DNA of 62,863 nucleotides from Minisyncoccota bacterium. Its GTDB lineage: Bacteria > Patescibacteriota > Minisyncoccia > Phycocordibacterales > UBA9973. Made by a program: the position numbers and the translations under genes. The stretch's first letter is position 1, and every line of letters starts with the position of its first letter. The DNA is taken from contig CALNZI010000008.1 of the NCBI GenBank assembly GCA_942491275.1, positions 1 to 62,863 of the forward strand, given 5' to 3'. The notes beneath the pieces were generated by a model. The model made no database searches. It was not told where the DNA came from and saw only the letters and a program-made list of their open reading frames with translations. Below are positions 11,790-55,858 of this stretch, one piece after another.

Positions 11790-11904
11790 ATTAAAACCCA
11801 AATAGCTCTTCTCTTCAGGCACGAAAATTTTCTGCTGAAAATTTTCTCAGTGTTCGCTCCGTCGAGCTCACAAGCCCTTCAGATAAGACTATTTGGGTTT
11901 TAAT
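11790..11904 (+). repeat. Dispersed structured repeat, copy A
   Basis: Core AATTTTC-TGCT-GAAAATT ... GCTC-CGTC-GAGC within a 16-bp IR (ATTAAAACCCAAATAG / CTATTTGGGTTTTAAT). Confidence 0.92.
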
Positions 11905-14664: not shown

Positions 14665-15708
14665 TTATTCAGGGTTATTTGTTTGTAATTCTCCAAATCG
14701 GTTTTTTATTTCCTTTAGAAAACCGTCGGCAACTTTTTTATTTTCTTTCAACCAGAGACGAGTAGCATCGTAACCTCTTCCCATAGAAACTTTGTTTCCA
14801 TCTTTATCTTTATATGAATAGGAAGCCCCTGATTTTTCCAGAATTTCAAGTTTCTCTCCTAGAGCGATGATTTCTCCTTCTCGAGAGATACCTTTTCCAT
14901 AGAGAATATCAAATTCAGTTTGTTTGAACGGGCTAGCTACTTTATTCTTTACAACTTTAACTCTAGTTCGGCTTCCGACAATTTCATCACCTTTTTTAAT
15001 TTGAGCAATTCGACGGATATCAAGCCTGACTGATGTGTAAAATTTAAGAGCTTTTCCTCCGGGAGTTGTTTCTGGATTACCAAACATAACACCTATCTGC
15101 ATTCTAATTTGGTTAATAAAGATAACAACAGTCTTTGAATTAGCAACGATGGCAGTCAATTTTCGAAGAGCCTGTGACATTAAACGAGCTTGTTTTCCCA
15201 TATGGGATTGACCCATATCTCCTTCAATTTCATCTCTAGGAGTTAGAGCTGCCACTGAATCAACTACTACTACATCGATTTTTCCAGAGCGAATTAAGCT
15301 TTCGGTAATTTCAAGAGCTTGTTCTCCATTGTCCGGCTGAGAGATTAATAGATCTTTGGTCTTTACTCCTAACTTTCCAGCATATACCGGATCCATTGCA
15401 TGCTCTGCATCAATGAAAGCACATATGCCACCCTTCTTTTGAGCTTCAGCAATGATGTGTAGGGCGAGAGTAGTCTTACCGGAGGATTCTGGTCCAAATA
15501 TCTCAAGAATGCGCCCTCGAGGGACACCACCTATTCCTAGAGCCATATCAAGCCCTAGAGATCCCGTTGGAATAACATCCACGTTTACTTTAGGAGTATC
15601 TCCCATTTTCATAATTGAACCTTCGCCGAATTTTGTTTGGATAGCTTTTATTGTATCTTCAATTTCTCCACCCACTGTTTTTAAGTCTTTCTTTGCTTTT
15701 TTTTGCAT
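14665..15708 (-). CDS. recA: Recombinase RecA
   Basis: [19 protein letters not shown] and [15 protein letters not shown]. Confidence 0.99.
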
Positions 15709-15723
15709 AATATAAAAATTATA

Positions 15724-15840
15724 AAAATAAATTAAAACAACTCTTCTCTTCGGGTATAAAAATTTTCTGCTGAAAATTTTCTCAGTATTCGCTCCGTCGA
15801 GCTCATAAGCCCCTCAGATAAGATTATTTTAATTTATTTT
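15724..15840 (+). repeat. Dispersed structured repeat, copy B
   Basis: Same core as copy A; flanking 17-bp IR AAAATAAATTAAAACAA / TTATTTTAATTTATTTT (one mismatch). Confidence 0.92.
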
Positions 15841-15860: not shown

Positions 15861-16256
15861 TTATTTTATAATTTCTCTTCCAAGTGCAATCGCCTCTGCA
15901 CTTTCATTTGATATGATAGTAAATTTCTTTTCTGCTGATTTTCCAAATTTGTCGCTGGCATGTAATGAAATAATAGAAAGTCCTGGTAATAGTCCAACTG
16001 TTTCTGAAAAATTACCTTGCTTGTCAATAAATATTTCACGTCCATTTAAACTTAGATGTATAGAATTTTTGGCATTGCCAAATACTTGGACAAGGGAAGA
16101 GGATTTATTCTGAGTTAGGCTTGCTTCTATTCGTACTCCTTTCATAACAAAATCCATTTTTATATAACCAAAAACACCGATAATTAAAATTAATAAAACA
16201 CAAGAAGAGAATCCTAGCCACCATTTTATTCCTTTGTTTTTAATATTCCTTATCAT
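15861..16256 (-). CDS. Hypothetical membrane-anchored protein, probable Ig-like fold
   Basis: One TM helix then a beta-rich domain (LSLNGREIFIDKQGNFSETVGLLPG). Confidence 0.7.
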   Translation of the reverse strand: MIRNIKNKGIKWWLGFSSCVLLILIIGVFGYIKMDFVMKGVRIEASLTQNKSSSLVQVFGNAKNSIHLSLNGREIFIDKQGNFSETVGLLPGLSIISLHASDKFGKSAEKKFTIISNESAEAIALGREIIK

Positions 16257-18671: not shown

Positions 18672-18789
18672 AAAAAAATAGACAAGACATACTCGGATTC
18701 ACCACGAATATTTTCCTGCTGGAAAATTTCTCTACTCGGCCCGTCGGCCTCCGTAAGGGTTCTCTCGAGCATATCTTGTCTATTTTTTT
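18672..18789 (+). repeat. Dispersed structured repeat, copy C (divergent)
   Basis: ATTTTCC-TGCT-GGAAAAT and GGCC-CGTC-GGCC; perfect 16-bp flanking IR AAAAAAATAGACAAGA / TCTTGTCTATTTTTTT. Confidence 0.85.
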
Positions 18790-18897: not shown

Positions 18898-19722
18898 ATG
18901 AATAACCAAAAAGACATACAAAAGACAGGGTTGAGTTCATACGGACAAAGTAATTTTGCGGGTACTAATGCATTGGTAAATAAACCTATTTACGAGTTTG
19001 CCAACAAAAAGACAGGGAAGCTAGTTACCGCCCTTTATATGGTCACAGATTGCATGGAAGTAAACGACGCTCTCCGTGAAAAACTACGTCTTTTAGGAGT
19101 TGAACTTTTGTCCGATATATACAAATTATCCACACTATTACCCATGGAAAATAGTACTCAAGTTGAGCTATCTCTAATTCGAATAAATGAGCTAATTTCC
19201 TTTATTGAAATTGCCGAGACTATAGGATATATATCTGAAATGAATACTAGTATTTTGAAGAGAGAATTTAATATATTGAGTGAAGAAATTAAAGCACATC
19301 AAACTAAGGATAATCATTTTCCATTTACACTGGATGATGAAATGTTCAAAACTCCAATAGAAAATAAAAGACAAGAAAATCTGTCTTTAAACAAGAACAA
19401 TAATAAAAGGACACCTTCTTTATTGTCTTTTACAAATAAAAGGACAGAAGGGAACAATGTCTCTAATAAAAAGGTTACTTCTATTGATTATAAAAAAATC
19501 AAATCTGACAGGGCAGAAAAGATTATTACTACTATAAAGGACAAACAAAAACTCCCAGGAGGGGAGAATGGAGCATCTATAAAAGACATTGCTTCTGTCG
19601 TTATTGATTGTTCAGAAAAGACCATTCAACGAGAACTAAACGATTTAATAGAAAAAGGCCAAGTTAAAAAAACAGGGGCAAAACGTTGGTCTAGATACCT
19701 ATTAATTGATACTAATATATAG
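18898..19722 (+). CDS. Hypothetical protein: N-terminal helical bundle, low-complexity linker, C-terminal winged HTH (DeoR-like)
   Basis: C-terminal SIKDIASVVIDCSEKTIQRELNDLIEKGQVKKTG..RWSRY is a wHTH pattern. Confidence 0.75.
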   Translation: MNNQKDIQKTGLSSYGQSNFAGTNALVNKPIYEFANKKTGKLVTALYMVTDCMEVNDALREKLRLLGVELLSDIYKLSTLLPMENSTQVELSLIRINELISFIEIAETIGYISEMNTSILKREFNILSEEIKAHQTKDNHFPFTLDDEMFKTPIENKRQENLSLNKNNNKRTPSLLSFTNKRTEGNNVSNKKVTSIDYKKIKSDRAEKIITTIKDKQKLPGGENGASIKDIASVVIDCSEKTIQRELNDLIEKGQVKKTGAKRWSRYLLIDTNI

Positions 19723-19727
19723 GGCAG

Positions 19728-19828
19728 AAAGAATAGCTCTCCTCTTCGGGCACGTAAATTTTCTGCTGAAAATTTTCTCAGTATTCGCTCCGTCGAGCTC
19801 ATAAGCCCCTCAGATGAGACTATTCTTT
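19728..19828 (+). repeat. Dispersed structured repeat, copy D
   Basis: Core nearly identical to copy B; 9-bp IR AAAGAATAG / CTATTCTTT. Confidence 0.92.
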
Positions 19829-20760
19829 TGACCTCTTTCATTTGTATTTTCCACCCCATTTTCTATCTATTTTTAGGGTTCAAAAATCACCATTTTTTGA
19901 CCCAAATTAAACCCTTAGTTATCCACACTTTTCTATATATCTATTGATTATTTATAGGCCACGGTATATAATACGTATACATATTATTATTGCTAGTGTA
20001 ATTGCACTAAATATGATAGTATATGTTGTCTGATATTATATTCATTTTTAATGGATATAAGTTGGATTGATCATTGAAAATTTAATAGCTAAAAATTATT
20101 AATACCAAATAATTTTTAGAAATATAATTTTAGTTCTTATTTTTTAAGAAGGTTTTATTTATAATTTTAACACCTTGTTTTAAAACTAGTTCTAAATTAT
20201 TTATTACTTTTCGATGGTTAGACACCGTAAAATTTTGAAGTAAAAATTTGAAATTATTTCTTCCGCTTAAAATTTTGTTTCCAATATTTGATACTCGTCC
20301 GTGATTTTTTTTGATAGAGAAAATTATTAGGAGAGAAAATATAAAAATAATTTTTTAAAAAGAAAAATAAAATTGAATTTATATTTTAATTTTTTATTTG
20401 GTATCGGCCCTGTCGACAAGGCAGATATGCTATTTGTTTTTCATTAAAATATTTTAATTTTTTTAGAAAATTTTAATGATTACATTTAGTAATGTTTATC
20501 AGTTTTTTTTCTAACTAATTTTTTCAGAATTTGGATTGTTGCTTGGCATATTTCTTTTGATAGAGAAGTAAGTAAGTCAGGAATAAAAAAAATAATGAAA
20601 TTATTATTTGGAATTTGTGTTCGTTCATATTAATCAATTAATTAATGTGAACAAAAATAATATACACACGCACATTAGTTTTTTTTGTGGATGCATCATT
20701 ATTAATAAGCATTCCATGAATTAGTCGAAATTAATTTAAAAGTGTATAGAATTATTAAAT

Positions 20761-22934: not shown

Positions 22935-22981
22935 TTTTGATTCTAACTCAAACGTCCGAACAATCCCCCAAATCCACCAAT

Positions 22982-23006
22982 TCTGCCAAGGACGGTCCTT
23001 GGCAGA
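22982..23006 (+). repeat. REP-like palindrome 1 (5' of RAYT)
   Basis: TCTGCCAAGGAC-G-GTCCTTGGCAGA. Confidence 0.9.
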
Positions 23007-23032
23007 TTTGAGCATTATGATATAATGGTTAT

Positions 23033-23705: not shown

Positions 23706-23736
23706 AAAGTTGCCAAGGACCGTCCTTGGCAACTTT
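23706..23736 (-). repeat. REP-like palindrome 2 (3' of RAYT, inverted relative to REP 1)
   Basis: AAAGTTGCCAAGGAC-C-GTCCTTGGCAACTTT. Confidence 0.9.
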
Positions 23737-23802
23737 AGGAGTTATCCACAGTTTGAGAGTATTTTTTATGGAAATAAAAAATACAGATTATATAATTGAG
23801 GA

Positions 23803-28166: not shown

Positions 28167-28173
28167 TTAGCTT

Positions 28174-28198
28174 TCTGCCAAGGACCGTCCTTGGCAGA
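28174..28198. repeat. REP-like palindrome 3 (8 nt after the large surface gene)
   Basis: TCTGCCAAGGAC-C-GTCCTTGGCAGA followed by TTTGAG, as for REP 1. Confidence 0.9.
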
Positions 28199-28318
28199 TT
28201 TGAGGTTTATTTTATAGAGCTGTCTAGGCGGTCAATATTGAAAAAATATTCAAAAAATTTTTATATTATTTTGGGATAATGAGTGGAAAATCTTGGCTTT
28301 TTGTGGTATAATAGGTGT

Positions 28319-31145: not shown

Positions 31146-31456
31146 ACTGCCTACGATGTTAATAAATAAAAACCAGTTGAAAATGCGGAAAAAGTAAAAC
31201 TTTCTTAGTTTTCCTTTGTCCGTCATTAAGACGGATTTTTTATTTGTTAGACAAGACATTGAAGATGATATTTGAAAACTGAATGCTGTTCCAACTCACT
31301 GTTATCCTTTAATTTTTTAAGGGTCTTTTGTATCGAGTTGGAAACAGAGTGTGATAATAAAAATTATTATTAGATCGGAAGCGGTTCTGAATGATAATAA
31401 TAAAGTCTGATTCTTTATCTGGAGAGAGAAAGATGATGATGGTTTTCAAATTTCCT

Positions 31457-34955
<3,499 letters not shown>

Positions 34956-35075
34956 AGGAAATATGAAAATCATCCCAGTAGTAGAGCATAGCTCACTACG
35001 GGATCAATTATTGTCACACTTTAGCATTCAGTTTTCAGATATTATCTATCTGAGTAGTGTTCATTGAATTTTTTG

Positions 35076-44557: not shown

Positions 44558-44559
44558 AT

Positions 44560-44584
44560 TCTGCCAAGGACGGTCCTTGGTAAG
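44560..44584 (+). repeat. REP-like palindrome 4 (2 nt after the stop of the Cys-rich gene)
   Basis: TCTGCCAAGGAC-G-GTCCTTGGTAAG, then AAACGTCCGAA (44585-44595), also found at 22950-22960 near REP 1. Confidence 0.88.
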
Positions 44585-44621
44585 AAACGTCCGAATCAAG
44601 ATGAGGTGTTATAATTAAAAA

Positions 44622-49845: not shown

Positions 49846-51672
49846 ATGTTAATTTCATACAATTGGCTAAAATCATATGTTCCCGAACTTCCAGAAAGTG
49901 AAAAAATTTCTGATATTATTAACAATCATCTTTGTGAGATTGAAGGTATTGAAAAAAAAGAAAATGATACAGTTTTTGATTTAAATATCTTGCCGGACAG
50001 AGCCCACGATTTACTTTCTCACCAAGGTGTTGCTCGAGAGTTAGCTTCTTTGCTGGAGTTAGATTTTAAACTTCCTGAATATAAAATTCCCACAGATAAT
50101 AAATCTAATTTCAAAATAGAAATAGAGACCGATAAATGTCGTCGATATATGGGTAGAATTGTTAGGAATGTAAAGATTGGACCATCTCCAAAATGGATGG
50201 CTGATTATCTAACTGCCATTGGGCAAAGAAGTATAAATAATATTGTTGATGCAACAAATATTGTGATGTTTGATTGTGGCCAACCAATTCATGCTTTTGA
50301 TTTAAAAGAACTTTCTTCGGAGAAAATAGTAGTTAAAAATGCTGTTATGGATGAAGAATTACAATTAGTTGGATCTGAAGAGGCAATCGTTAAATTAACC
50401 GATTCAAATATGATGATTACCGATGGAAAAAAGAACCTTGCAATAGCAGGAGTTAAAGGGGGAAAGAATTCTGGAGTCTCAGAAAATACAAAGGATCTTT
50501 TAATTGAAGTGGCGAACTTTGAACCAGTTTCTGTTCGTAGAACTTCAAGAGTTTTAGGAATACAAACAGACGCAACAAAGAGATATGAAAATGATTTATC
50601 TGCAAATTTATGTGATTTTGCAATGAAAGAAATTTCATCCTTATTTTTGGACATGTTTCCTGACGCAAAGTTTGAAGAAATTATTGATGAATATCCCATA
50701 AAGAAAGAAAAGAAAGTTATTTCTTTTAGTACAGAATATGTTTCAAAAATGTTGGGTGTTGAGATTTCAGATAAAGAGATAGAAAAAATCTTAAAAAATT
50801 ATAACTTTGATTATAGCGGAAATTGGAATGTGGAAGTTCCTGATATGAGAATCGATTTAAGTGGCCCGCAGGATATGGTTGAGGAAATAGGGAGAGTCTA
50901 TGGTTATGATAAAATTCCTTCAAGATTACCAGAGGTAGATTTTCCCGGAGAGAATAATCCTATTTGGGATAAAATACAAAAAGCGAAGGTCCAGCTTATT
51001 AATGATGGATATAAGGAGATAATGACCTACACTTTTACCAATAGGGGCAAAGTTGAAGTTTTAGCCAGCGCCAGTGATAAAAATTTTCTAAGAGACAATC
51101 TTTCTGACGGGCTTAGGGAGAGTTTAAGATTAAATAAAATAAATGCACCACTTCTTGATTTTGATGAAATTAAAATTTTTGAAATAGGGACAGTGTTTTT
51201 TGAGGATAGGGAGGAAATTCATGTTTGTTTTAATGAGAAGAAAAATATTATAGAAATGACGCTAAAAGAGTTTTCGGGAAAGAAGATTTCTTCTGAAGTC
51301 TACGGATATTTTTCTGCTGAAAAATTCCTCGTGCTCGGGCCGTCGCCCTCCCAAGGTACTTCAGATGAAACTTCTTTTCCTTCAACTTTTAAACCTTGGT
51401 CTTCCTATCCATTTATTTCTCGTGATATTTCTGTTTGGGTTCCAGAAAATACTAAGCCAGAAGAGTTGTCAAAAATTTATGAAGAACTTGGAACTGATCT
51501 TCTTATTAATAAACCAAAACTTTTCGATCAATTTACTAAGGATGGAAGGACTTCCTATGCATTTCGATTGGTTTTTCAATCTCAAGAGAGAACTCTGACG
51601 GACGAGGAAATAAATAAAGTAATGGTAAAAATTGAAGAGAAAATAGCTTCTTCTGGGTGGGAAGTAAGATAA
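49846..51672 (+). CDS. pheT: Phenylalanine-tRNA ligase beta subunit (short form) with a repeat-derived in-frame insert
   Basis: MLISYNWL, PDRAHDLLSHQG.ARE, INNIVDATN, B5 RIDL...EEIGR.YGYD, B8 YPFISRDIS...SYAFRL.FQ...RTL. Confidence 0.95.
   Translation: MLISYNWLKSYVPELPESEKISDIINNHLCEIEGIEKKENDTVFDLNILPDRAHDLLSHQGVARELASLLELDFKLPEYKIPTDNKSNFKIEIETDKCRRYMGRIVRNVKIGPSPKWMADYLTAIGQRSINNIVDATNIVMFDCGQPIHAFDLKELSSEKIVVKNAVMDEELQLVGSEEAIVKLTDSNMMITDGKKNLAIAGVKGGKNSGVSENTKDLLIEVANFEPVSVRRTSRVLGIQTDATKRYENDLSANLCDFAMKEISSLFLDMFPDAKFEEIIDEYPIKKEKKVISFSTEYVSKMLGVEISDKEIEKILKNYNFDYSGNWNVEVPDMRIDLSGPQDMVEEIGRVYGYDKIPSRLPEVDFPGENNPIWDKIQKAKVQLINDGYKEIMTYTFTNRGKVEVLASASDKNFLRDNLSDGLRESLRLNKINAPLLDFDEIKIFEIGTVFFEDREEIHVCFNEKKNIIEMTLKEFSGKKISSEVYGYFSAEKFLVLGPSPSQGTSDETSFPSTFKPWSSYPFISRDISVWVPENTKPEELSKIYEELGTDLLINKPKLFDQFTKDGRTSYAFRLVFQSQERTLTDEEINKVMVKIEEKIASSGWEVR
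51279..51378 (+). repeat. Dispersed structured repeat, copy E, inside the pheT coding sequence
   Basis: ATTTTTC-TGCT-GAAAAAT and GGGC-CGTC-GCCC; IR AAAGAAGATTTCTTCTGAAGT / ACTTCAGATGAAACTTCTTT. Confidence 0.85.
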
Positions 51673-51821: not shown

Positions 51822-53969
51822 ATGGCTAAAAAAGAAGTAAAAACTAAAGTTAAAAGTAAAACAAAAAATGAATATGGTGCCGATAAGATTTCTGTTTTAG
51901 AAGGACTTGAACCAGTACGTCGTCGTCCCGGAATGTATATTGGATCCACTGGAGTTGAAGGATTACATCATTTGATTTGGGAAATTTTTGATAACTCTCG
52001 AGATGAAGCCATGGGAGGTTTTTGTGATCGCATTGAAGTGACTTTGCTTCCAGATAATGCTGTTCGAGTTGTTGATAATGGACGAGGAATTCCAGTTGGC
52101 ATCCATCCAAAGACAAAAGTTTCTGCTTTGGAAACAGTAATGACAACCCTTCATGCTGGAGGTAAGTTTGGAGGAGAAGATAGTGGGTATAAAGTTTCCG
52201 GAGGACTTCATGGAGTTGGGGCTTCCGTTGTAAATGCTCTTTCTATTTACACTAAAGCTGAGATTCACACTGAAGGCGGCAAGCACGTCCAGGAATATTC
52301 AAAAGGGAAAAGAAAGTCTGCCGTTAAAAAAGTTTCTTCATCGAAACATCATGGAACAATTATTTCTTTCCAGCCTGATGATGAAATTTTTTCTGCCAAG
52401 GAAGGGAAAGATATTAGATTTAAGTGGGAAACTATAGTAGATCATTTACGCCAGCAAGCATATTTAGTTAAGGGATTAAGAATAGATATTATTGATGCCC
52501 GAGAGTGGAGTCCTTTAGTTGAAGGAAAGGGTAAAAAAGATTTTGAAAATATTTTTTGGTTTAGAGAATTAGAATTAGAACTTCCTTCTACCACTTTCTA
52601 TTTTGAAGGAGGACTTGTTTCTTTGGTTAAATTTTATAATCAATTAGATAAACCATTACACCGAACAGTTTTTTATGTAGACAGAGAATTAGATAATGTT
52701 GGAGTCGAAGTTGCACTTCAGTATGTAGATGATATTAGCTCTGAAATAGTTCCTTTTGCGAACAATATCCATAATCCAGAAGGGGGGACTCACATAACTG
52801 GTTTTAAAATGGCTTTAACTCGTATCCTAAACACCTACGGCAAGAAGAATAATATGATTAAAGATAGCGATGGTGGTTTTACGGGAGACGATGTCCTAGA
52901 AGGGCTTATGGCAGTAGTTTCCGTTAAATTACGAGAGATTCAGTTTGAGGGACAAACAAAGGGTAAATTAGGGTCAACAGAGGCTCAGGGAGCTGTAGCA
53001 ACCGTCTTTGGAGAAGCTTTCTCAGCTTTCCTTGAAGAAAATCCAGATGAAGCTAAAGCTATAATTAATAAGTCAATTTTAGCTCTTAGGGCTCGAAAAG
53101 CAGCTAAGGCGGCGAAAGATTCAGTTCTTCGAAAGGGAGTTCTAGAGGGAATGACATTACCTGGAAAGCTAGCTGATTGTCAGGTTAAAGATGCTGAAAG
53201 TGCAGAATTGTTTATTGTGGAGGGAGATTCCGCTGGAGGTACTGCGAAGATGGGACGAGATCGAAAAACTCAAGCCATTTTACCTCTGCGAGGAAAAATT
53301 TTAAATGTTGAAAGAGCCCGTCTTGATCGAATATTAGGATCTGAACAGATAAAAAATTTAGTTATTGCCATGGGTGCTTCCATTGGAGATACTTTTGATA
53401 TTGAAAAAATGCGTTATCATAAGATAATTATTGCTACCGACGCCGATGTGGATGGAGCTCATATTGATACACTTATTTTAACTTTATTGTATCGTTATTT
53501 CCGCCCAGTGATAGAAGCTGGCTATGTTTATATTGCCCAACCCCCACTTTTCAAAATAAAGAAAGGAAAAGAAATTTTCTATGCTTACTCCGACGAAGAA
53601 AGAGATTCTATTTTAGGAGAAGACGCTGTTGCCATTGAAGATTTATTAACTGCTTCAGCTAACGAAGAAGGGGATTTTAGTTCTGAAGAAGAAACAGAAG
53701 ATGTTGATGAAAAAGAAAATACTTCTTCTAAAAAAGTAGTAAAGAAGAAAGCAAAAATTCATGTTCAGAGATATAAAGGTTTGGGGGAAATGAATGCCGA
53801 AGAATTATGGGAAACTACAATGGACCCAGAACGTCGTCTTTTGAAACAAATTGTTATAAATGATGCGGAAAAAGCCAATAAAGTTTTTGATACTTTAATG
53901 GGATCACTGGTTCCACCTCGTAAAGCTTTCATTCAATCTCACGCTAAGATGGCGAATCTAGATGTATAA
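51822..53969 (+). CDS. gyrB: DNA gyrase subunit B
   Basis: LEPVRRRPGMYIG, DNGRGIP, SGGLHGVGASVVNALS, VEGDSAGG, PLRGK, TDADVDG, RYKGLGEM; C-terminal NLDV. Confidence 0.9.
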   Translation: MAKKEVKTKVKSKTKNEYGADKISVLEGLEPVRRRPGMYIGSTGVEGLHHLIWEIFDNSRDEAMGGFCDRIEVTLLPDNAVRVVDNGRGIPVGIHPKTKVSALETVMTTLHAGGKFGGEDSGYKVSGGLHGVGASVVNALSIYTKAEIHTEGGKHVQEYSKGKRKSAVKKVSSSKHHGTIISFQPDDEIFSAKEGKDIRFKWETIVDHLRQQAYLVKGLRIDIIDAREWSPLVEGKGKKDFENIFWFRELELELPSTTFYFEGGLVSLVKFYNQLDKPLHRTVFYVDRELDNVGVEVALQYVDDISSEIVPFANNIHNPEGGTHITGFKMALTRILNTYGKKNNMIKDSDGGFTGDDVLEGLMAVVSVKLREIQFEGQTKGKLGSTEAQGAVATVFGEAFSAFLEENPDEAKAIINKSILALRARKAAKAAKDSVLRKGVLEGMTLPGKLADCQVKDAESAELFIVEGDSAGGTAKMGRDRKTQAILPLRGKILNVERARLDRILGSEQIKNLVIAMGASIGDTFDIEKMRYHKIIIATDADVDGAHIDTLILTLLYRYFRPVIEAGYVYIAQPPLFKIKKGKEIFYAYSDEERDSILGEDAVAIEDLLTASANEEGDFSSEEETEDVDEKENTSSKKVVKKKAKIHVQRYKGLGEMNAEELWETTMDPERRLLKQIVINDAEKANKVFDTLMGSLVPPRKAFIQSHAKMANLDV

Positions 53970-53974
53970 TTTAT

Positions 53975-54093
53975 AAAAAATATTAAAAATAGCTCTTCTC
54001 TAAATGCACACATAATTTTCTGCTGAAAATTTGATCTGCTCGGGCCGTCGCCCTGCGCAAGGCATCTCTTGAAGACTATTTTTAATATTTTTT
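53975..54093 (+). repeat. Dispersed structured repeat, copy F (between convergent gyrB and thrS)
   Basis: AATTTTC-TGCT-GAAAATT and GGGC-CGTC-GCCC; perfect 18-bp IR AAAAAATATTAAAAATAG / CTATTTTTAATATTTTTT. Confidence 0.92.
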
Positions 54094-55858
54094 AATTTAG
54101 AGTTTTTTCTGAAATTTCTTTTTGTAATTTTTCGAGAAGTTGCTCCGAAGTAATTCCTTCTAACTTTTCATCTCGTCCTTCGAGAGTTACTGTTCTAGAT
54201 TCTTTTTCTTTATCTCCAATAACTATCACGTATGGAGTTTTTTGTAATTTAGCATTACGGATACGTTTTCCAAGAGATTCATTTGAATCATCCAACTCAA
54301 CTCGGATATTTTTTTCTTTTAGTTTATTATAGATTTCATCCGCGTATCCTTTTTGTTTTTCACTAATTGGAGTAATGATTACTTGAACAGGAGAAAGCCA
54401 AAGGGGGAATGCTCCAGCATATTTTTCAATAAGGAAAGCCATTATTCTTTCGATTGCTCCAATAGAAGATCGATGAACCACAAAGGCTCTATGTGATTTT
54501 CCATCTTCTCCTATATAGGAAAGATCAAATCTTTCTGGCATGCAGAAATCATATTGGACCGTGAAGGCCGTATCTTCTTTACCATTTACATTTTTCATTT
54601 GGATATCTATTTTGGGACCATAAAAGGCAGCCTCATCTTTGGCTTCTTCGAATGCAGATTTTCTACTTATCATTAATTCTCGTAGAAGGTCTTCTCCTTT
54701 TTCCCAGGCAGAATCATCGTTATAATATTTTTCAGTATTATTTCTGTCTCCCAGAGAAAGTCGGTATCTATAATCCACATCAAGTTTTAGTCCAAAAACA
54801 GAGGTAATGTACTCAATCAAATCTAGAGCTTTACCAATTTCTTCTACAGCTTGTTTATCTGAAGCACATATTATATGGGCATCGGCTAGACAGAAACTTC
54901 TAACTCTAACAAGACCCATAAGTTCTCCCGACTGTTCATATCGATATAATTTAGCTAATTCAGCAATTTTCAGAGGTAGCTCTTTATAACTATGTGGTTT
55001 ATTTAAATATAATTCAAAGTGATGAGGACAGGTCATTGGTCTAAGCATATATTCTGATTCATCAATTTTTATTGGAGCATACATGGAATCCTTGTAATGG
55101 GGATAATGTCCAGATTTTTTATATAATTCTAAGTTAGCAATGTCTGGAGTTACAACATGTTGATATCCACGTCTAATTTCTTCATCAACAATAAATCTTT
55201 CTAGTTCACGTCTAATTGTTGCTCCCTTAACTGTAAAGAGAGGAAGACCCTTACCAACTGTTTCAGAAAAGACAAAAAGGTCTAATTCTTTCCCTAATTT
55301 TTTATGATCTCTTTTTTCGGCTTCAATTCTCATTTCCTCATATTCTTTTAAAGCCTCTTTGCTTTCAAAAGCCAATCCGTAAATACGAGTAAGCATTTTA
55401 TTTTTTTCATCTCCTCTCCAGTAGGCTCCAGCAACACGGTCCAAATTAAAAGAATCACTTTTAATTTCTTTAGAAGGATTTTCTACATGTCCTCCTCCAC
55501 AAAGATCAGTAAAATCACCACAACTATAAAGGGTTATTTCTTCTCCTCTTTCTACTATTCCGTCTATTAATTCTAATTTGTATACATTATCTTTGTAATA
55601 TTCTCGGGCTTCTTCGGGGGAAACTTTTTTATGACTGAATTCTTTCCAAGAAGAAAGATTTTTTTTCATTATTTTCTCTAATTTTTTTAAATCGTCATCA
55701 TTAACTTTCTTGTCCCCGAAATCAATATCATAATAGAACCCATTATCAACAGCCGGACCCAGTGTTAAGAGCGACCCCGGATGTATTTCTTTGGCAGCCT
55801 GGGCCAATAGATGAGAAAGTGTATGTCTAATATTTTTAATTTTTTCGTTATTTTCCAT
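54092..55858 (-). CDS. thrS: Threonine-tRNA ligase (lacks the N1/TGS domain)
   Basis: RHTLSHLL, DLCGGGHV, AYWRG, DHKKLG, RPMTCPHH, AFYGPKID and VHRSSIGAIER. Confidence 0.98.
   Translation of the reverse strand: MENNEKIKNIRHTLSHLLAQAAKEIHPGSLLTLGPAVDNGFYYDIDFGDKKVNDDDLKKLEKIMKKNLSSWKEFSHKKVSPEEAREYYKDNVYKLELIDGIVERGEEITLYSCGDFTDLCGGGHVENPSKEIKSDSFNLDRVAGAYWRGDEKNKMLTRIYGLAFESKEALKEYEEMRIEAEKRDHKKLGKELDLFVFSETVGKGLPLFTVKGATIRRELERFIVDEEIRRGYQHVVTPDIANLELYKKSGHYPHYKDSMYAPIKIDESEYMLRPMTCPHHFELYLNKPHSYKELPLKIAELAKLYRYEQSGELMGLVRVRSFCLADAHIICASDKQAVEEIGKALDLIEYITSVFGLKLDVDYRYRLSLGDRNNTEKYYNDDSAWEKGEDLLRELMISRKSAFEEAKDEAAFYGPKIDIQMKNVNGKEDTAFTVQYDFCMPERFDLSYIGEDGKSHRAFVVHRSSIGAIERIMAFLIEKYAGAFPLWLSPVQVIITPISEKQKGYADEIYNKLKEKNIRVELDDSNESLGKRIRNAKLQKTPYVIVIGDKEKESRTVTLEGRDEKLEGITSEQLLEKLQKEISEKTLN

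Follow-up and report, generated by a model that had tools for sequence, protein, structure and literature searches.

Results

Six copies of one repeat lie among ordinary cellular genes

The window, by which we mean the whole 62,863-nucleotide stretch of DNA analysed here, contains exactly six copies of a repeat, all in one shared orientation, as determined by direct repeats, a core pattern search and a covariance model; run with filters off on both strands, the model returned six matches with E values of 1e-24 to 4e-18, the next match having an E value of 0.03. The identifiable genes around the copies are ordinary cellular ones (a SIMPL-family gene, secE, recA, ftsK, pheT, gyrB and thrS). Nine of the ten ORFs flanking the copies matched ordinary cellular protein families, the exception being a 274-aa ORF without a Pfam match, and none of these ten was evidently a transposase, a reverse transcriptase or another partner gene. 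Homologues of PheT place the organism among Paceibacteria/Nomurabacteria-like Patescibacteria, the closest pheT being 67% identical.

Copy A (11790-11904, 70.5 bits; this and the other five hairpins are assigned to the minus strand) has a SIMPL/DUF541 gene on one side and secE on the other; its unit (11800-11895) is enclosed by outer arms at 11790-11799 and 11896-11904, and its 16-bp arms run from 11790 to 11805 and from 11889 to 11904. Copy B (15724-15840, 63.6 bits, E value 4e-18), situated between a 131-aa ORF (15861-16256, minus strand) and recA (14665-15708, minus strand), has arms of 17 bp (15724-15740 and 15824-15840) with a single mismatch, which is C.A on the plus strand and G.U on the minus strand. 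Within these, a locus-specific left outer arm (15724-15734, AAAATAAATTA) pairs with a locus-specific right outer arm (15830-15840, TAATTTATTTT), outside a unit of ~96 nt common to copies A, B and D, which in copy B occupies 15735-15829 on the minus strand, comprises the inner stem and a three-way-junction head and corresponds to direct-repeat family D3. Copy C (18672-18789, 72.1 bits; 16-bp arms at 18672-18687 and 18774-18789), which lies between the divergent ftsK and 274-aa ORF, is of a separate subtype with an inner stem of CUCGAG..GGUGAAUCCGAG, and copy D (19728-19828, 64.7 bits; unit 19731-19826) lies 3' of the 274-aa ORF with 9-bp arms (19728-19736 and 19820-19828) and an outer arm of just ~5 bp. 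Copy E (51276-51380, 84.2 bits) is 105 nt long, equal to 35 codons, and lies within pheT (49846-51672), with arms at 51276-51285 and 51371-51380 in addition to imperfect inner pairing. Copy F (53975-54083, 76 bits; 18-bp arms at 53975-53992 and 54066-54083) fills the space between the convergent gyrB (51822-53969) and thrS (54092-55858).

Each of the six folds as one long hairpin (z scores of -4.7 to -7.0, with 0 of 200 shuffles equalling any), and ten contiguous complementary bases in a fixed register would be expected by chance at ~2e-6 in DNA of 35% GC. The original observation, that flanking arms differ from copy to copy and are self-complementary within each, was borne out for all six, with every arm length and coordinate in agreement.

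Elsewhere in the window, Rfam 15 at gathering thresholds reported just LSU rRNA, 5S rRNA and one tRNA. The 23S rRNA gene (31456-34958) measures 3503 nt against a model of 2925 nt, so that ~580 nt are insertions, none of the six elements being inside, and no 16S gene was seen upstream of it within the window. A GC-rich palindrome, TTCTGCCAAGGACNGTCCTTGGCAG, forms an unrelated repeat family (D4) at 22981-23024, 23708-23751, 28173-28216 and 44559-44602, and periodic repeats of 12-18 nt (families D1 and D2) at 1700-2200 code for a Pro/Glu/Thr-rich stretch. The ~900 nt downstream of copy D (19860-20760) held no plus-strand ORF of at least 60 aa and no Rfam match. Six perfect DnaA-box-like nonamers (TTATCCACA) begin at 19126, 19919, 23345, 23742, 30214 and 42147, all on the plus strand; an enrichment of such boxes near copy D was rejected, as with one mismatch allowed their count was not above chance.

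A conserved head stands on a variable basal stem

The locus-specific inverted repeats that appear to wrap each copy are the variable basal stem of a hairpin of ~96-115 nt, whose conserved head, a three-way junction, carries two short hairpins with the minus-strand loops GACG and AGCA. On that strand the basal stem leads into a junction strand that closes with GGA, after which come hairpin A, GAG, hairpin B and the return strand of the basal stem. The consensus of hairpin A is N-NNC-GACG-GNN-N and that of hairpin B is ..AAUUUUYC-AGCA-GRAAAAUU.., with a bulged A; in the RNA-sense (minus) strand of copy B these take the forms GCUC-GACG-GAGC and AAAAUUUUC-AGCA-GAAAAUUUU. Both loops and hairpin B are nearly invariant. 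Hairpin A covaries freely, one of its pairs being CG in 55 copies, GC in 28, UA in 4 and AU in 2, and a second being GC in 68, CG in 17, UA in 8 and AU in 6; compensatory changes were found at 7 of the 13 predicted pairs. The stems comprise at least 30 pairs with the three-way junction and are ~95% Watson-Crick, and the sequence of the basal stem is free provided that pairing holds. Tandem G.A motifs, noted by eye only, occur beside hairpin A and inside some stems and resemble protein-binding motifs of RNA.

More of the stem is common to the copies than had been described. The pentamers AATAG/CTATT are indeed common to copies A, D and F, as first reported, and they are not the sole shared arm sequence: the 96-nt unit of copies A, B and D is ~90% identical and already includes ~17-20 bp of stem, and ATTAAAA/TTTTAAT, immediately outside the unit, is common to copies A, B and F. 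Within the unit, copies A and D differ by compensated pairs (T-A against C-G, and A-T against G-C). The truly locus-unique part is thus the outermost 5-14 bp only (10-14 bp in copies A, B and F). The ends AATAGCTCTTC...GAAGACTATT are common to copies A, D and F and to the related loci L025 and L115, other subtypes ending otherwise, and the outer arms are unique. The arms had also been contrasted, as mostly A/T, with the GC-stem terminators of the window; those terminators (family D6) do differ, but the A/T content follows the genome, and in carriers with genomes of 53-57% GC the arms are GC-rich.

Pairing is maintained on the minus strand

Strandedness was assessed in 102 main-family copies drawn from the window and from 119 related loci. 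The reverse complement of the window plus strand folded better in 94 of the 102, with a mean advantage of 5-6 kcal/mol, and the minus strand was favoured in all six window copies, clearly so in B, C and D. G.U pairs numbered 247 on the minus strand against 133 on the plus strand, and single A.C mismatches 19 against 55. Folding and the G.U excess therefore identify the minus strand as the one on which pairing is maintained. The window plus strand is G-rich throughout (skew +0.126), and a mutational bias behind the G.U asymmetry was rejected since deamination on a G-rich strand predicts the opposite sign; selection on a single-stranded minus-strand form is therefore the better explanation. With pairing kept on one strand only, the structure matters as a single-stranded form, either RNA or ssDNA. 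A rule tied to the replication strand was also rejected, as the bias was moderate only (the folding strand was C-rich in 64 of 98 loci) and copies in one locus can face both ways.

The family is spread across Patescibacteria

A degenerate core pattern applied to GTDB species representatives recovered at least 119 loci, all of which have the conserved head on a long stem whose sequence differs from locus to locus. Among the matches listed, all but three records were labelled Patescibacteria or unclassified 'bacterium', with exceptions given as three loci labelled gamma-/pseudomonadal, one Draconibacterium; host labels included Nomura-, Kaiser-, Adler-, Yonath- and Zambryskibacteria and Minisyncoccia. 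Copies are dense, with six per 63 kb in the window and up to three per 8 kb at some loci. Adjacent copies, as inverted pairs or tandems, are frequent (L044:446-647, L049:1221-1465, L006:879-1077, L062:5425-5610 and L095:2199-2397); the members of adjacent inverted pairs are only 65-70% alike, so that mirror duplication was rejected in favour of separate insertions.

Several identities were considered and set aside. No covariance-model match linked the element to an Rfam 15 family, including twister, hammerhead, SRP, Y RNA and tmRNA, and for copies A, F and six tRNA-linked loci, searches with E-value limits of 10 and 0.1 returned nothing relevant. ARAGORN returned ordinary tRNAs only, ruling out a tRNA or tmRNA, and a phage origin was ruled out by the lack of a match among 2.9 million viral contigs. 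An intrinsic terminator or cis-regulatory role was rejected on the grounds that copies occur in ORFs, that stems of at least 30 pairs carry a three-way junction and that orientation relative to neighbouring genes is random, with both neighbours opposite in 28 cases and the same in 22, and copies within ORFs being sense in 14 and antisense in 11. We found no published description of the element in the literature, and it is apparently uncatalogued. On balance, and with the explanation taken as a whole, we lean towards regarding the family as short, non-coding insertion elements (~96-115 nt) that are palindromic in form and restricted to Patescibacteria.

A second class with an extended head (..GCGACCCCGCCUCGCGCCGUCG.. 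core strand) was observed at L028, L035, L053, L061, L063, L065, L082 and L103 (for example L082:5074-5204). Its copies lie in clusters of tRNA genes, co-oriented with the tRNAs in 8 of 8 cases, and are flanked by direct repeats of 16-27 nt that are pieces of the neighbouring tRNA gene; the copies in L028 and L061 look like insertions into a duplicated tRNA fragment.

Copies within a genome share heads and differ in arms

For pairs of copies from the same genome, in at least six genomes besides the window, heads were 0.92-1.0 identical while the next 20 nt of the arms were 0.3-0.7 identical, against ~0.44 for random pairs; one genome shares arms and further flanks too (L018, L034 and L045). 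The paralogues L076, L098 and L101 differ only in the arms and, by compensated changes, in the stem of hairpin A.

Gene-order positions were found to be occupied repeatedly. The position between the 131-aa ORF and recA is filled in the window (copy B), L004 and L085, where RecA is 73-80% identical, with arms and subtypes that differ and, in L004, a different orientation as well; that between ftsK and the 274-aa ORF is filled in the window (copy C), L044 and L049. From these comparisons such positions would seem to be either old or preferred targets. At L089:3440-3525, the gyrB-thrS spacer orthologous to the copy F site, there is no head; the spacer instead forms a perfect 20-bp hairpin with a 27-nt loop, and its arms (AAAAAACAGTAAAAATTTTC / GAAAATTTTTACTGTTTTTT) contain the stem sequence of hairpin B. 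It could be a decayed or rearranged relative of the element, or a pre-existing hairpin. The data fit re-insertion at preferred sites, gene-conversion pasting of heads into old hairpins, or both, and the positional conservation could mean that copies are old, with heads merely homogenised by gene conversion and little true transposition.

Insertion within genes and turnover at a tsaD site

Roughly one fifth of copies lie within reading frames, in both orientations and several frames. Twenty-four reading frames remain open through a copy, including tsaD, uvrD, recG, pheT, ksgA, prmC and a phospho-sugar mutase gene, and hairpin B translates as KFSAENF in either direction. Copy E is read in frame on the plus strand as GKKISSEVYGYFSAEKFLVLGPSPSQGTSDETSFP, in a variable linker of PheT; the insert is present in the pheT orthologues P0003, P0004, P0005 and P0056, with the closest orthologue, P0002, being without it. 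Relative to solved homologues the inserts amount to 32-48 aa. Alignment to these homologues put the whole hairpin, with both arms, inside the extra segment in L097 and L096, and most of it in L112; for L071 and L056 the comparison was of insertion size only. In-frame insertion into housekeeping proteins is thus tolerated.

The TsaD site KLAEE.R // F.LPRPM was followed across 120 CPR proteins (P0121-P0240; loci L074, L097 and L119-L124). A recognisable element peptide was present in ~93 of the 120, 20 were empty and 7 were unclear. The inserts occur in at least five frame and orientation versions, some orthologues having two copies, and the nearest TsaD neighbour carried the same insert type for 40 of the 120 against a permutation mean of 21, which is far from clade-wise inheritance. 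P0144 and P0197 are ~98% identical outside the insert and hold the element in opposite orientations (for P0197, the flip was deduced by translating the reverse complement of L124), and tsaD pairs of 97-98% identity carry different subtypes, the whole hairpins with arms included. Closely related genomes differ in whether they carry the element, in its orientation and in its subtype, and the TsaD linker either attracts insertion strongly, as a hot spot, or undergoes rapid flipping and replacement.

Occupied and empty tsaD alleles

Comparison of an occupied with an empty tsaD (L122 and L123, 83% nucleotide identity) showed that a hairpin of ~95 nt replaces 18 A-rich bases. The L122 hairpin includes both terminal arms (GGATTTCGCG...CGCGAGAATCC), and L123 has neither arm and no palindrome, so that the inner arms arrive with the element. 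No palindrome was present at any of three empty tsaD sites. The suggestion that the element targets the loops of pre-existing hairpins was accordingly not upheld at tsaD; given the headless L089 hairpin, it may hold for intergenic sites.

The L074 tsaD carries a larger insert of 144 nt, in which a 5' arm extends ~40 nt beyond the unit. This extra arm holds GGGGATTT..AACATG..CGGAAAG..TTTC, the reverse complement of the downstream host sequence GAAATCTTTCCGCTTCCCCGCCCCATGTTGAAATCCCC, which encodes the universally conserved EIFPLPRPMLKSP. Arm and host flank match without gaps at 26 of 34 positions, a score reached by 1 in 2000 shuffles. The two orthologues closest to L074 (L120 and L121) are empty, with the downstream sequence present and its upstream complement absent, and gave control scores of 9-11 against a shuffle mean of 7.7. 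This one clean case shows that the stem can grow outward through an inverted copy of one flank. The unit occurs at the same site without the extension in L097 and many other tsaD genes, and the extension apparently postdates insertion.

These alleles divide the original proposal that insertion duplicates flanking DNA in inverted form: the L074 arm agrees with it, its closest empty orthologues being one-armed, but it does not give the general origin of arms, as the empty L123 has neither. The converse possibility, that arms are just variable parts of the element copied between sites, describes the inner arms (L122 against L123; also L097, L096 and L112) but not the L074 extension, which is derived from the flank. 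For the outer arms of copies A, B and F no empty allele was found in databases, the nearest pheT being 67% identical, and how the window copies acquired theirs we infer by analogy.

Discussion

Origin of the arms

The explanation that we hold to be probably, if by no means securely, correct is that the element is a mobile hairpin which depends on its structure and whose basal stem is formed by the arms: the inner part of these belongs to the unit, and the outer part is written or renewed by fold-back copying. Head and inner stem would be copied from site to site, or homogenised among the copies within a genome, and intrastrand template switching (fold-back synthesis) at the hairpin would produce or restore the outer arms; there, a new strand may snap back on the stem and copy its own other side, at times running into host DNA. 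Fold-back copying would account for arms that are ~95% Watson-Crick and yet unrelated between loci, and stems so well paired speak for complementarity being actively renewed. Template switching is well established as a source of perfect palindromes (PMC6649704).

The best surviving alternative, though unlikely, takes up the earlier idea that each insertion leaves the new copy with its flank duplicated in inverted and not in direct form: the arms would be made at each insertion, the head moving via a hairpin RNA or ssDNA intermediate and target-primed synthesis snapping back to copy the adjacent target. The order in L074 (inverted downstream flank, unit, downstream flank) is what such a snap-back predicts, same-genome copies with identical heads have sharply different perfect arms of 14-22 bp, and the tRNA-linked subclass has direct repeats of variable length (16-27 nt), as target-primed insertions do. 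Arms made at insertion are nevertheless hard to reconcile with an empty L123 allele that has neither arm, or with L096, L112 and L097, where both arms are extra relative to solved homologues; the unit without extension at the L074 site in L097 and many tsaD genes makes the extension look secondary, and direct repeats around main-family copies are not above chance. A related scheme, somewhat more doubtful, would be a bacterial equivalent of a SINE-like or 'fold-back' retro/ssDNA element with a structured minus-strand intermediate, in which target-primed synthesis snaps back to give an inverted target duplication and the tRNA-linked subclass represents co-transcribed source genes.

A further reading, which falls between these two in probability and is also rather unlikely, combines hairpin targeting, as first proposed, with concerted evolution: the head would enter pre-existing hairpins (old copies, terminators or other palindromes), or be pasted into them by gene conversion, and the outer arms would predate the head and be a property of the locus. 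That copy B resembles its paralogues A and D, and not its positional counterparts in L004 and L085, is as expected here, as are the headless hairpin in the L089 spacer, the identity of L076, L098 and L101 save for the hairpin A stem and arms, which patchy conversion would give, and the resemblance of the copy A arms to a weak A-tract/CCC...GGG/T-tract terminator. Against it, the three empty tsaD sites are free of hairpins, the same AATAG/CTATT boundary in copies A, D and F, L025 and L115 suggests a defined unit and not conversion tracts, and tsaD genes of 97-98% identity have wholly different hairpins, arms included.

That the copies are small structured transcripts of the minus strand that serve the host, such as a protein-binding scaffold with the arms as a covarying closing helix and in-gene copies as tolerated by-products, would suit the strand-specific tolerance of G.U, the covariation in hairpin A and stems, the compensatory differences between copies A and D within the unit, the conservation of the head over the whole class or phylum and the 8 of 8 co-orientation of the tRNA-linked subclass with tRNA genes, but is improbable given the random orientation to neighbours (28 opposite, 22 same; 14 sense and 11 antisense in ORFs), the one fifth or so of copies inside reading frames in either orientation, the speed with which the element is gained, lost and flipped at one tsaD site, and the occurrence of adjacent pairs and up to three copies per 8 kb. 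Two features do favour a functional RNA: the G.A motifs, and a head conserved across the phylum, which a selfish repeat would not usually show. The fold-back explanation and its rivals differ mainly in timing and beneficiary and are not mutually exclusive.

The tiny genomes of Patescibacteria evidently tolerate a dense, structured repeat, even where it interrupts essential proteins, and the element could serve as a marker of genome dynamics in an uncultivated phylum and as a natural setting for hairpin-driven template switching, with host sequence being written into a gene in reverse. A further consequence is annotation artefacts, in the form of 32-48-aa 'linkers' in TsaD, PheT, RecG and UvrD. 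Should the head prove to bind a conserved factor or to move through RNA, this would point to undescribed machinery in Patescibacteria.

Comparison with known systems

MITEs, Correia, ERIC and bcr1 elements and REP/REPIN sequences are likewise short, abundant, non-autonomous hairpin repeats, some of them transcribed. MITEs, however, are characterised by terminal inverted repeats conserved among copies and by direct duplications of the target site. Here the ends common to copies A, D and F, L025 and L115 give way to others in further subtypes, and direct repeats flanking main-family copies were not above the null, the tRNA-linked subclass alone having them, at a variable 16-27 nt. The layout of REPINs, with conserved arms, a variable loop and a RAYT partner gene, is the opposite of the conserved head and variable arms found here. 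Integron attC sites are closer in some respects, being imperfect palindromes of 60-140 nt that are recognised as folded single strands with one strand active, but their base is conserved (the R''/R' boxes) and their top variable, the reverse of this element, which occurs inside essential genes and outside cassette arrays.

The Rickettsia palindromic elements, reportedly described by Ogata et al. in 2000 as RPE-1 to RPE-8, offer the nearest likeness in behaviour. They too are hairpin-forming repeats of ~100-150 bp without coding capacity of their own; they occur in bacteria that depend on hosts and have reduced genomes, and are found both between genes and, at permissive surface loops, in frame in housekeeping proteins, with no known transposase; the present element is also a hairpin repeat of about this size that is found both between genes and in frame in conserved proteins. 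Like the RPEs, which are mentioned in PMC6649704, it is most likely selfish. The likeness drawn here is one of behaviour, and there are differences: the phylum is another, the head is near-invariant throughout a class or phylum with free arms and strand-specific pairing, about three quarters of orthologues carry the element at one tsaD site, and RPEs are reported to decay with time. With its matches in Patescibacteria MAGs, the element may be called an RPE analogue at most.

Quasipalindrome template-switch mutagenesis in bacteria, studied by Ripley and by Lovett and colleagues, perfects or lengthens an imperfect hairpin when the nascent strand copies its own other arm. Such switching would explain both the near-perfect arms that differ between loci and the host coding stretch that is copied in reverse in L074; the 'coding palindromes' reported from mitochondria of Nematomorpha provide a comparison case (PMC6649704). 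Quasipalindrome cases are generic DNA events at any inverted repeat, whereas here, as far as the sequences indicate, the process would act on a defined, conserved, multi-copy element.
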